Assembly: GCA_041661425.1 (NCBI GenBank)
Contig: JBAZUI010000002.1
Location: 38 to 64,037 of the forward strand
Length of the DNA stretch: 64,000 nt
Reading direction: 5' to 3'
From: Patescibacteria group bacterium
Lineage (GTDB): Bacteria; Patescibacteriota; Patescibacteriia; UBA9934
Shown in pieces: positions 54,991 through 55,277 of the stretch; within the stretch, counting starts at the first letter, position 1, and each line of letters starts with the position of its first letter. Both the position numbers and the translations under genes were made by a program. The notes under the pieces were generated by a model. The model searched no databases and was not told the origin of the DNA. It was given only the letters and a program-made list of their open reading frames with translations.

Positions 54991-55081
54991 GGAGAGGTGG
55001 CTGAGTGGTCGAAAGCGCACGACTCGAAATCGTGTGTGCCTCAAACGGGTACCGTGGGTTCGAATCCCACCCTCTCCGCCA
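54991..55081 (+). tRNA. tRNA-Ser (anticodon CGA), class II with long variable arm
   Basis: GGAGAGG acceptor, anticodon loop CTCGAAA, variable arm TGTGCCTCAAACGGGTACC, T-loop TTCGAAT, encoded CCA. Confidence 0.85.
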
Positions 55082-55083
55082 TG

Positions 55084-55113
55084 AAAAAATCTCAGCTTCT
55101 GCTGAGGTTTTTT
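55084..55113 (+). terminator. Intrinsic terminator CTCAGC-ttct-GCTGAG-gTTTTTT after tRNA-Ser
   Basis: Read directly. Confidence 0.7.
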
Positions 55114-55259
55114 CATTCTGAGGTGGGATTCGAACCTGCCTACCGGCAGGCAGGCGGGTTGGAAGCGAGGCTTGCCAATTCGTAGCCGAGCGATCGAAAA
55201 ACTGCCAGTGGCAGATTTTCGCCAACCCAGGACAGAGTGAGTGAAACGAACGACGACAA

Positions 55260-55277
55260 AATCCCACCCTCTCCGCC
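55260..55277 (+). repeat. 18-bp direct repeat of the tRNA-Ser 3' end (aatcccaccctctccgcc), identical to 55063-55080; att-core-like
   Basis: Exact match read by eye; the 181 bp between the copies contains a T-arm-like fragment and a GC palindrome. Confidence 0.7.

Follow-up and report, generated by a model that had tools for sequence, protein, structure and literature searches.

Does the copy of a tRNA 3' end that stands downstream of tRNA-Ser(CGA) in this DNA mark a place where an integrase once acted, and does a 23-nt sequence beside it tie the locus to a GC-rich island elsewhere in the same stretch? An earlier note, made from the letters of the DNA, had read the locus in this way. The window, the whole 64-kb stretch that we analysed, belongs to the chromosome of a Candidatus Uhrbacteria (Patescibacteria) and lies close to the replication origin. 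Our analysis indicates that the repeat behind tRNA-Ser is probably no integrase scar but the terminal part of a small, conserved, tRNA-tail-copying element, here called E.

The repeat at tRNA-Ser(CGA)

The duplication of the tRNA 3' end is real. The window has two exact copies of the 18-mer AATCCCACCCTCTCCGCC, one at 55063-55080 and the other at 55260-55277, with no further copy even at two mismatches and none in 100 shuffles. Similarity between the two copies extends to 23 nt at 91% identity. They had been placed 181 nt apart; both copies are where they were reported, but the gap between them is 179 nt, with a start-to-start distance of 197 nt. The T-arm-like fragment described in the spacer is also real: its 15 nt (55122-55136) repeat the tRNA's own T-loop and T-stem (55057-55071) exactly, in inverted orientation. 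We conclude that the distal 18-mer is accessory DNA attached to the tRNA gene, a duplicate that did not arise by chance. The locus contains the following features.

54991-55081, + strand: tRNA-Ser(CGA), intact, CCA encoded (ARAGORN; Rfam tRNA model, 63.8 bits)
55063-55080, + strand: repeat copy 1, the last 18 nt of tRNA-Ser(CGA) preceding the final A (18-mer search)
55085-55113, + strand: hairpin with a T-run, stem 55091-55106, between tRNA-Ser(CGA) and E (sequence, terminator scan)
55120-55277, + strand: element E, tRNA-linked, with RtT-like architecture, 158 nt including the 20-nt palindrome P (nhmmer homologues, covariance model R1, consensus fold)
55122-55136, + strand: 5' arm of E, exact reverse complement of the tRNA T-loop and the 3' strand of the T-stem (self-comparison, folds)
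55135-55154, + strand: P copy 1, CCTGCCTACCGGCAGGCAGG, 20-nt palindrome inside E (1-nt ambiguity, 55136-55155 being possible)
55156-55228, + strand: body of E (alignments, RNAalifold)
55229-55259, + strand: single-stranded-like conserved block, AGGACAGAGTGAG...CGAACGACGACAA, just 5' of the tail copy (alignments)
55260-55277, + strand: repeat copy 2, the 3' arm of E, equal to tRNA nt 58-75 from T-loop AAT to CC (18-mer search)
55325-58462, unstranded: lineage-specific block on the 3' side of the tRNA (Pfam, relatives' loci)

The hairpin at 55085-55113 is preceded by an A-tract and followed by a T-tract, and judging by its sequence it looks like an intrinsic terminator. In two of the loci described below, homologous hairpins are present: L131 has one in the corresponding position, and in L005/L130 they flank E on either side.

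Element E and its relatives at other tRNA genes

The plan of E comprises a 5' arm reverse-complementary to the T-loop and T-stem, a hairpin-rich conserved body and a copy of tRNA nt 58-75. In predicted folds the arms pair with each other, 5' GGTGGGATT with 3' AATCCCACC, and the 3' strand of the helix that they can form is the tRNA's own T-stem and acceptor strand. Within the body, GGGTTGG (55156-55162) pairs with CCAACCC (55222-55228), and this 7-bp helix encloses both a sub-hairpin at 55163-55194, with the conserved motifs AGCGAGGC and GCCGAGCG, and a second hairpin, CGAAAAACTGCC-AGT-GGCAGATTTTCG, at 55195-55221. Covariance model R1 scored the window's E at 135 bits.

A metagenome scan with the E core found three further contigs, L131, L132 and L130, the last of which is the contig of locus L005. 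Their copies of E have nhmmer E-values of 2.6e-46 (L131), 3.6e-35 (L132) and 5.1e-19 (L005/L130). The order in L131 is tRNA-Ser(UGA), hairpin, E, AATCCCACCCTCTCCGCCA and terminator, with recG as the next gene downstream, and that in L132 is tRNA-Asp(GUC), hairpin, E, the tRNA-Asp tail AGTCCCGTCCAGTCCGC and terminator. L005 carries a solo copy, 3 kb from the tRNA. The genes neighbouring the copies are of the housekeeping type: galU (in the window), recG, a radA-like gene and other non-mobile genes. The sub-hairpin at 55163-55194 is missing from L005, and by-eye reading of the sequences shows that the pairing of the hairpin at 55195-55221 is kept in L132 through two-sided changes. In the block at 55229-55259, none of the first 13 nt varies among the four homologues, and all lie within an invariant 20-mer, CCAACCCAGGACAGAGTGAG.

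Every tRNA-linked copy ends in the tail of its local tRNA. The tail copies measure 18 nt in the window, 19 in L131, 17 in L132 and 19 in Escherichia coli, and all begin at the T-loop AAT/AGT, at the same T-loop position in the window, L131, L132 and the E. coli tyrT units. The 5' arm changes jointly with the local tRNA, as seen in L052 (AGGGATTCG/CGAATCCCT) and L132 (GGGGCT/AGTCCC). L052 is one of three loci, with L054 and L084, that follow the E plan with unrelated bodies, L084 having two tandem mini-units; R1 matched the L052 and L084 units at 13-14 bits, exactly at the predicted places. In an RNAalifold consensus of E, two-sided changes occur in 3 of the 40 pairs, covariation support that is thin because there are just four homologous copies and three analogues.

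Several other identities for the spacer were considered and dropped. A minus-strand pseudo-tRNA or tmRNA was rejected, as ARAGORN returned nothing with or without P and the Rfam permuted-tmRNA match reached only 10.8 bits. Readings of the sequence as a retroviral-type primer-binding site, integron attC, group II intron, retron or hammerhead were abandoned because their hallmark motifs are not there, or no reverse transcriptase or integrase lies beside E, and because E always adjoins its matching tRNA gene. A guide RNA, in which E would be the scaffold and the tRNA tail the 3' "guide" as in TnpB reRNA, is speculation, and no nuclease gene was found near E.

What E may be

We put it slightly above even that E is a conserved, tRNA-tail-copying element like RtT RNA that is transcribed or processed, and that the 23-mer belongs to a separate mobile palindrome, P. 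E would be transcribed with the tRNA or just after it, and its tRNA-like terminal helix may let tRNA end-processing enzymes trim and stabilise it. The product would be an RtT-like small RNA that may have a regulatory role. At the DNA level, short tRNA-tail repeats could promote duplication, inversion and relocation around tRNA genes, and P would have entered the window twice, at one point in E and at another in the apex region of a GTAG hairpin that lies in the GC-rich segment. Against an RNA product stands the strong terminator-like hairpin that separates the tRNA from E, and a promoter and terminator scan of the window locus found no convincing promoter for E.

We also considered, as a rather unlikely alternative, that E is a small non-autonomous mobile element. 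An enzyme whose gene lies elsewhere would move it in trans, and its insertion sites would lie at or within the 3' part of tRNA genes. The tail copy and its complementary 5' arm would have been created or captured at insertion, and transcription of E is compatible with such an origin. The patchy occurrence of E, at differing tRNAs, is accounted for at least as readily by a mobile element as by an RNA gene inherited vertically. Highly similar copies with an identical 20-mer core lie at different tRNAs and in different neighbourhoods (galU, recG, tRNA-Asp and the L005 solo copy), and the tail copy always matches the local tRNA. Among 42 related loci with tRNA-Ser(CGA), E is missing from 41, the solo copy in L005 being the exception, and a downstream tail copy is lacking in 39. 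The hairpins on both sides of E in L005 look as if tail and hairpin had been duplicated at insertion. On the other side, no transposase, integrase or reverse transcriptase adjoins any copy among the tested ORFs, a target-site duplication of the usual type is not seen, and only four copies are known. Nor is any mechanism known to us that would generate an inverted copy together with a duplication of about 19 nt. A search of viral contigs with the E core gave no match.

The search for an integrase

Worked out in full, the earlier note's proposal is that the two 18-mers are the attL and attR of a tRNA-targeting tyrosine integrase, which would leave a CIME-like remnant whose island body has been deleted and make the AT-rich genes to the right leftover cargo. 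We now hold this to be unlikely. Several features do favor it. The repeat spans the T-loop to the tRNA 3' end, the tRNA is intact, and the tRNA-Ser/galU interval is a variable hot spot within the clade, in which the orientation of the tRNA differs among relatives. Williams is said to have described the stretch from T-loop to 3' end, in 2002, as a known sublocation for integrase crossover. In addition, another, partial copy of the tail is present in L005, 5.7 kb downstream of the tRNA.

The enzyme, however, is missing. When all ORFs of 90 aa or more picked from the 64-kb window were compared with Pfam, no phage-type integrase, transposase or reverse transcriptase was found, and the 179 nt between the copies hold no ORF. 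No integrase lies near the distal copy, and the sole tyrosine recombinase in the window is Xer-type and 38 kb off.

16793-17716: Xer-type tyrosine recombinase, the only one in the window (Pfam)

Integrases were likewise absent at 3.3-10 kb in L005 and, in L131 and L132, among the tested ORFs in the vicinity of E. An attR core would be expected to carry the left half-site GTGGG TTCG, which the distal copy lacks, and a minimal E unit with conserved internal hairpins is found at three tRNA species. Because the unit recurs at other tRNAs with the local tail, beside non-mobile genes, it does not resemble a set of independent deletion scars. A search of metagenome contigs for the empty site, using a 43-nt pattern specific for this tRNA-Ser, gave no match, and look-ups by exact protein yielded just short Logan contigs ending at the repeats.

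The suggestion of residual cargo is not supported either. The block at 55325-58462 is indeed lineage-specific, but no further att-like copy bounds it. It contains a 268-aa hypothetical protein, three small hypotheticals and a LigT-like protein (Pfam), splits the conserved gene order Wzy - tRNA-Ser - galU, and has no homologues in 80 related loci. Neither these right-hand hypotheticals nor the proteins of the GC-rich segment matched PHROGs. The 268-aa ORF showed no homology to the ORF at the matching place in L005.

The 23-mer, palindrome P and the GC-rich segment

The GC island is real, with a GC content of 0.59-0.64 at 47-50 kb against about 0.45 elsewhere in the window. It has the following features.

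46950-50000, unstranded: GC-rich two-gene segment, separate from E (GC profile)
46989-48731, - strand: ORF of the GC-rich segment
48854-48873, + strand: P copy 2, reading CCTGCCTGCCGGTAGGCAGG, inside hairpin 48837-48884
49081-49917, + strand: ORF of the GC-rich segment

The closest relative has the segment at the syntenic place, and at the matching position L005 encodes a 31%-identical homologue in a segment just as rich in GC. Logan contig L134, which comes from an independent assembly, runs across the right junction of the window's segment with the pilin genes. The 580-aa protein of the segment is unrelated to an ORF of the same length in L131. Since the segment is syntenic and no phage-type integrase, transposase or reverse transcriptase is encoded in the window, neither an integrase scar nor a specific link between the GC island and the tRNA is supported.

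As reported, the 23-mer CCTGCCTACCGGCAGGCAGGCGG is exact at 55135-55157 (+) and 48851-48873 (-), and the match is beyond chance, none being found in shuffles; it extends to 27 nt with one mismatch (26/27). The shared sequence consists of P, the 20-nt palindrome (CCTG)2CC-GG(CAGG)2, and 3 flanking bases. Using a search pattern that allowed two variable positions, we found 57 copies of P in 48 unrelated viral stretches with GC contents of 0.33-0.70. The palindrome is perfect in 42 of these copies, and the other 15 differ at one or two of the variable positions. The earlier note had named a dispersed repeat as the finding that would undo its link between the island and the tRNA-Ser element; we judge that the 23-mer is just that, and in orthologous E copies P is absent or displaced.

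Insertion polymorphism can be seen directly. The L131 orthologue lacks P at the same point (TTCGAAC-GGGTTGG), and in L130 P lies at another site of E, inside the tRNA-tail copy, which it disrupts. Removing P from the hairpin at 48837-48884 leaves a perfect 28-nt palindrome of GTAG type, GTAGGGGCGACCGGCCGGTCGCCCCTAC, and no hairpins of this kind occur in the syntenic intergenic region of L005. P also sits in the variable loop of a phage tRNA-Met, which ARAGORN calls as a tRNA with or without it and which had no match among GenBank phages. Other viral copies are nested in tandem arrays and other repeats. The window has 2 copies, and 1.19 Mb of Uhrbacteria-type loci contain 5 exact or one-mismatch copies and one with two mismatches. 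No exact copy turned up in 7.3 Gb of plasmids, where the best matches were 19/20 nt, in four Streptomyces plasmids and one Nonomuraea record. A literature search for the P sequence found no papers. Direct repeats of at least 6 nt flank P at 13% of sites, compared to 6% of controls, and vary in length; a regular target-site duplication was rejected. We conclude that P is a separate, very small mobile repeat and that the two window loci share nothing beyond one P each.

It is very improbable that the 23-mer acts instead as an operator, a recombination site or another functional site coupling the GC-rich segment with the tRNA-Ser locus. The exactness of the match over 23 nt (26/27 in all), the palindromic form common to many protein-binding sites, and the fact that both window copies are the same G/T variant of the palindrome would agree with such a role. 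However, the insertion polymorphism already largely refutes coupling: E in L131 has no P, P in L130 is elsewhere and breaks the tail copy, the syntenic GC segment of L005 lacks P, and P recurs in 48 unrelated viral stretches, in tRNA genes, tandem arrays and other repeats. Hardly credible at all is that the resemblance arose by chance or in assembly. In SRR18595301, Logan contigs break near both P copies and inside E, no second assembly spans the repeats, and P-bearing sequences so far all come from metagenome assemblies, but genuine repeats also yield contig breaks, shuffles gave zero matches, E is conserved across independent projects, and P shows lineage-specific variants and precise 20-nt insertions with intact flanks.

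Implications

In Patescibacteria the E plan is found at several tRNA species and its arms follow the local tRNA, which suggests that the design is a general, tRNA-linked one and not an E. coli oddity, and the E copies are comparative material for working out the function of the RtT plan. P carries very small mobile repeats beyond the Nostocaceae, and its two window copies illustrate that two loci can match exactly over 23 nt without having a common history. For pipelines that search for islands, short tRNA-tail duplications should not automatically be scored as integration scars.

A broader proposal is possible, although we lean against it: P would be among the smallest mobile DNAs, and E, RtT and the L052, L054 and L084 units would form one class of tRNA-tail-mimic RNAs. 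If so, P, residing in hairpin and tRNA loops, might be moved in trans by a widespread hairpin-recognising enzyme, and the 5' arm of the RNA might pair alternatively with its own tail copy or with the real tRNA, which could allow the RNA to sense or sequester tRNA.

Comparison with known systems

Like the islands that tyrosine integrases insert at tRNA genes, the E locus has an intact tRNA and a direct repeat of its 3' end that starts in the T-loop, an exact 18-nt copy 179 nt downstream. In such islands an integrase gene or pseudogene lies within or beside the repeats, and the repeats bracket foreign genes. Here the Pfam scan found no integrase, the 179-nt interval is free of ORFs, and the lineage-specific genes lie outside the repeats, with no repeat on their far side. 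E also differs in its conserved and structured interior, in the inverted tRNA fragment that forms its 5' arm, and in its presence at several tRNA species.

A partial resemblance exists to the Xanthomonas sRNA sX4 (Rfam RF02223), whose model combines tRNA-Ser(CGA) with a hairpin in the trailer and a segment that complements the T-stem and acceptor strand. The model aligns to 54983-55128 of the window, including UCAUU..GGUGGGA, at 28.8 bits against a gathering score of 70; most of this score comes from the tRNA, and unlike E the model has no counterpart of the body or tail copy.

The closest architecture is that of the 178-bp tyrT repeat of E. coli and its RtT RNA (rttR; Rfam RF00391). RtT RNA has been known since the 1980s-90s, and to our knowledge (Rfam and the papers cited below) it is described only from gamma-proteobacteria. 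In both systems the unit lies 3' of a tRNA gene on the same strand, within the locus, as seen in the window, L131 and L132. It starts with the reverse complement of the tail, and both ends can thus pair, this closing stem being the sole helix of the Rfam consensus. At its other end it repeats roughly the last 19 nt of the tRNA, starting from the same T-loop position (AAT...CCA in E. coli). Both have an internal GC hairpin and GAGCG/AGCGAG-type motifs, and the E. coli repeats occur in tandem, as do the L084 units. We verified the E. coli architecture directly on NC_000913, where the tyrT-tyrV-rttR units of K-12 begin with GGGGAAGGAT, the reverse complement of the tRNA-Tyr tail, and end with AATCCTTCCCCCACCACCA. 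The GACGAA.AATCC junction of E can be aligned with the tyrT-tyrV unit.

Reciprocal covariance matches are weak in both directions. The Rfam RtT model matched E of L131 over its full length at 12.9 bits, below the gathering score of 45, and found no match on E of the window or of L132. R1 matched the E. coli tyrT-tyrV unit over its full length at 21 bits (E-value about 4e-4 to 3e-3). Part of these scores must come from the shared tRNA-like tail, and nhmmer found no significant similarity in primary sequence between E and E. coli. The systems differ further in that E. coli has no terminator-like hairpin between tRNA and unit, whereas the Patescibacteria copies have one; E lacks a tpr-like ORF, is single-copy in the window, and belongs to a phylum far from the Enterobacteria and Pasteurellaceae. 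Transcripts of tyrT and of other tRNA operons release RtT RNA, which has been tied to the stringent response (PMC4986893, PMC3318445, bioRxiv 10.1101/2024.07.17.603846), and its mode of action was still termed unknown in 2024 (bioRxiv 10.1101/2024.07.17.603846).

For P, the MITE arrangement of terminal inverted repeats inside a fixed-length target-site duplication is not found, the ambiguity at three resolved sites being 0-1 nt. REP and REPIN elements, which are mobilised by RAYT transposases (PMC3116915), resemble P as short extragenic palindromes, and the P-hosting hairpin of the GC-rich segment and two neighbours begin with GTAG/GTAC as REPs do. P itself, unlike REPs, has no GTAG head and few copies in the sequence that was available, and it is common to unrelated genomes, whereas REPs are species-specific; Pfam found no RAYT or Y1-transposase gene in the window.

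The small dispersed repeats (SDRs) of the Nostocaceae, reportedly described by Elhai et al. in 2008, are nearer to P. SDRs have been reported only within that family (PMC5861425). P differs from them in sequence, in being a near-perfect 20-nt palindrome, in occurring in Patescibacteria and viral contigs, and in a copy number per genome that appears low. The likenesses are more extensive: both are non-coding, nearly invariant, hairpin-forming sequences of about 20-27 nt that are nested in repeats, hairpins and tandem short repeats, and both show insertion polymorphism, which for P is seen as presence, absence or a change of position in E of the window, L131 and L130 and in the tRNA-Met.

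Element E at the tRNA-Ser locus

The site at the tRNA-Ser gene contains an RtT-like, tRNA-linked element, E, into which a mobile palindrome of 20 nt, P, has inserted. The relevant features of the window are:

46950-50000: GC-rich segment
48851-48873, minus: 23-mer within that segment
54028-54897, minus: galU-like gene adjoining tRNA-Ser
54991-55081, plus: intact tRNA-Ser(CGA), called by ARAGORN and Rfam
55063-55080: 18-mer AATCCCACCCTCTCCGCC, tRNA nucleotides 58-75
55120-55277, plus: E
55135-55157, plus: 23-mer within E
55260-55277: second 18-mer

The direct repeat of the tRNA 3' end described in the earlier note was confirmed: the two 18-mers are exact, with no further copies in the window even at up to two mismatches, and none in 100 shuffles. 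A gap of 179 nt, rather than 181, separates them (their starts are 197 nt apart), and the T-arm-like fragment reported within it is indeed present, as an exact 15-nt inverted copy of the tRNA T-loop and T-stem 3' strand. The exact 23-nt match to the GC-rich segment likewise held, and extends to 27 nt with one mismatch.

BLAST of this spacer against all fetched loci gave 89% identity over 75 nt in the closest relative, L005, and the invariant core, CCAACCCAGGACAGAGTGAG, scanned against metagenomes, picked out three stretches: L130 (the L005 contig), L131 and L132. No additional homologues were found by nhmmer in ~1.6 Mb of fetched sequence. Homologues at other tRNAs end in the tail of the local tRNA, and all copies, the window's included, show pairing between 5' arm and tail copy. 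The consensus fold from RNAalifold comprises a closing stem, an invariant 7-bp helix and two hairpins; read from the sequence, the 55195-55221 hairpin remains paired in L132 despite two-sided changes. The L005/L130 copy is flanked on both sides by hairpins homologous to the one after the window's tRNA. Three other loci (L052, L054 and L084) have, after tRNA-Ser(CGA), units of the same plan whose bodies are unrelated. The other 39 related tRNA-Ser(CGA) loci show no tail copy, 7 of them with less than ~330 nt of downstream sequence available.

Copies of E and units of the same plan (arms given as 5' arm / tail copy)
Window E: arms GGTGGGATT / AATCCCACC
L131 E: tRNA-Ser(GCU), tRNA-Ser(UGA), hairpin with T-run, E, AATCCCACCCTCTCCGCCA, terminator; next gene downstream recG
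L132 E (more diverged): tRNA-Asp(GUC), hairpin, E, AGTCCCGTCCAGTCCGC, terminator; tail copy is that of tRNA-Asp; arms GGGGCT / AGTCCC, one pair altered on both sides
L005/L130 E: solo copy, inverted, 3 kb from tRNA-Ser(CGA); one sub-hairpin missing; A-U in the arms replaced by one G-U
L052 unit: GC-rich body of ~95 nt; arms AGGGATTCG / CGAATCCCT, matching its own tRNA
L054 unit: body of 44 nt
L084 units: two in tandem, 64 nt each

We lean toward an overall picture in which E is an RtT-like element tied to tRNAs and P a separate mobile palindrome. E would be transcribed, with maturation into a small RNA of the RtT type proceeding via its tRNA-like terminal helix. Local rearrangements may also be driven by the short tRNA-tail repeats of E; a likely example is L005, where one of the three tail copies is inverted. 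A patchy distribution and differing tRNA hosts favour a reading of E as itself a mobile element; we regard this as possible though doubtful, and it is compatible with the RNA picture.

The third L005 tail copy, CCTCTCCGCCATGAAAAT, is partial and lies 5.7 kb downstream of the L005 tRNA-Ser (L005:9060-9077), with a flank matching the sequence after the window's tRNA (ATGAAAA). No integrase lies between the two, where the genes are metabolic plus a TrmB-type regulator. Separately, small genes encoding GIY-YIG nucleases directly adjoin tRNA genes or fragments at L005:3280-3708, from ~540 onward in the viral stretch L126 and at the start of another, L101. The L005 gene comes immediately after tRNA-Ser(CGA) and a long hairpin, and the L126 ORF begins within the anticodon loop of a truncated tRNA-Lys-like sequence. 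Such genes may form a separate class of tRNA-associated selfish genes.

Recombinase content and genomic setting

The earlier note had read the repeat as an att scar left by a tRNA-targeted integrase at tRNA-Ser. A Pfam scan of all ORFs picked in the window with a length of 90 aa or more found no transposase, RAYT or reverse transcriptase; the sole tyrosine recombinase (16793-17716), 38 kb from the repeats, aligns full-length to XerC, XerD and XerA models. Because this enzyme is Xer-like and distant, and the spacer is a conserved element, the scar reading is unsupported and quite improbable.

The window, which includes dnaA, dnaN, rnpA and a tandem array of T4SS-pilin paralogues, is core chromosome close to the replication origin. 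The galU-like gene has its best identity (79%) to MAGs named Candidatus Uhrbacteria / Patescibacteria. Across 80 related loci the order SpoIID, polysaccharide synthase, Wzy, tRNA-Ser(CGA), galU, solute-binding protein, pilins, PGI is conserved, though tRNA-Ser(CGA) itself varies in distance and orientation. An additional ~3.2 kb block of unique genes (55325-58462) lies on the tRNA 3' side in the window.

Other features were observed in this setting. The genes rnpA, dnaA and dnaN cluster at 32886-36421, where cumulative GC skew turns (minimum near 35 kb); the origin probably lies within the window. The pilin array (49997-52581, minus) consists of six tandem paralogous small membrane proteins matching PF18895 (T4SS_pilin), with 57-80-nt blocks recurring every ~370-430 nt; its position adjoining galU and the solute-binding protein is kept across Uhrbacteria. 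At 17840-19428 (plus), three successive small ORFs (138-143 aa), each little beyond an RNA polymerase alpha C-terminal domain, occupy a local GC-rich patch (0.52-0.55) beside the Xer recombinase, tRNA-Arg and tRNA-His genes.

A mobile palindrome and the GC-rich segment

Set against the E of L131, that of the window is longer by exactly 20 bases, CCTGCCTACCGGCAGGCAGG, placed at TTCGAA^CGGG. The same 20-mer, P, sits in the same orientation in L130, where it separates CCCACC from CTCTCC in the tail copy; taking P out of 48837-48884 in the GC-rich segment leaves a perfect 28-nt palindrome, GTAGGGGCGACCGGCCGGTCGCCCCTAC. P is positionally polymorphic. Judged from these three sites, the 23 nt of the earlier note are P plus three flanking bases (CGG) that agree by happenstance.

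Matches to the pattern CCTGCCTRCCGGYAGGCAGG number 57 in IMG/VR, spread over 48 stretches with GC of 0.33-0.70; their flanks are unrelated, and there are as many as six on one contig. The Uhrbacteria-type loci (1.19 Mb) hold five exact or one-mismatch copies and one at two mismatches. Exact P was not found among PLSDB plasmids, nor a regular target-site duplication at P sites. A phage tRNA-Met also holds a copy in its variable loop, and ARAGORN calls this tRNA with or without P; other copies lie beside tRNA fragments in L086, L101 and L126.

Several viral contigs carry P in particular arrangements. It occupies the tRNA-Met variable loop in two related contigs (L115:2284 and L086:8616); in L086 a deletion after P has removed the T-stem 5' strand and T-loop, fusing P to the tRNA 3' part at a junction resembling that of P with TTCGAATCCCACC on the window's minus strand. 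L128:3918-4125 is a tandem array of ~11 P-derived units (TGCCTACCGGCAGGCAGGC-like, 21-nt period), with further scattered copies. In L109/L110 (IMGVR_UViG_2848964341_000001), three occurrences of P are a constant part of a longer composite repeat, ...CTCCCCTCTCC..GGAGAGGG-P-GTTGGGGGTGAGG, so larger repeat families can carry it along.

The 580-aa protein of the GC-rich segment is matched in L005 by a homologue of 31% identity, likewise placed between pilin genes and PGI; the counterpart segment is equally GC-rich (0.57-0.69), reads as the same two divergent genes, and lacks both P and the GTAG hairpins in its intergenic region. On these comparisons the segment is ancestral to both genomes and not a recent tRNA-tied island. 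With P widespread elsewhere, the proposed link between island and tRNA-Ser loses its footing, and a role for P or the 23-mer as a functional coupling site is unlikely. An artefact is also unlikely. As for the segment itself, an independent Logan contig runs across the junction of the segment with the pilin genes.

Beside the P-bearing hairpin, two others occupy 48900-48990, one headed by GTAC (GGGCGGGTC-TGC-GACCCGCCC) and the other GTAGGGACGTAGC-CTG-CTACGTCC. Together the three form a REP-like cluster, missing from the syntenic L005 region.

Comparison with known RNAs and repeats

We know of no previous description of an RtT-like element or a P-type repeat in Patescibacteria; E and P are each a novel form of something already known. 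RtT, the E. coli tyrT-repeat RNA, is described as set free from the transcripts of tyrT and of other tRNA operons and as linked to the stringent response, its mode of action being still unknown (PMC4986893, PMC3318445, bioRxiv 10.1101/2024.07.17.603846). Read directly, the E. coli K-12 tyrT-tyrV-rttR locus has one unit after each tRNA-Tyr. Each unit starts with the reverse complement of the tRNA tail (GGGGAAGGAT) and ends with the last 19 nt of the tRNA (AATCCTTCCCCCACCACCA), a copy that begins from the same T-loop position as in E; the interior contains TTCGAC, GAGCG/AGCGAGAG and a GC hairpin. R1, our covariance model of E, matched the tyrT-tyrV unit full-length at 21 bits (E 4e-4 to 3e-3), a score to which the shared tRNA-like tail must contribute, aligning GAAC, UGCCA..GGCA, AGGA, GCGAAGC and GACGAA.AAUCC. 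It also matched the L052 and L084 units exactly at the predicted places (13-14 bits).

In an E-value-threshold Rfam scan, the E of L131 gave one full-length match, to RtT RNA (RF00391), scoring 12.9 bits where the gathering score is 45; Rfam scans gave no RtT match for the E of the window or of L132, and nhmmer no significant primary-sequence similarity between E and the E. coli unit. Taken together, the shared plan, the cross-model matches and the sub-threshold score show that E is built like an RtT unit but falls short of the Rfam threshold for the family. The Rfam sX4 model (Xanthomonas sRNA) aligned weakly at 54983-55128 (28.8 bits, gathering score 70); it is essentially tRNA-Ser(CGA) plus a trailer pairing back to its T-stem and acceptor strand, and the alignment suggests that such tRNA-linked trailers may be widespread.

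For P, the nearest precedent lies in the small dispersed repeats of the Nostocaceae, reportedly described by Elhai in 2008 (listed in the references of PMC3116915 and summarised in PMC5861425).
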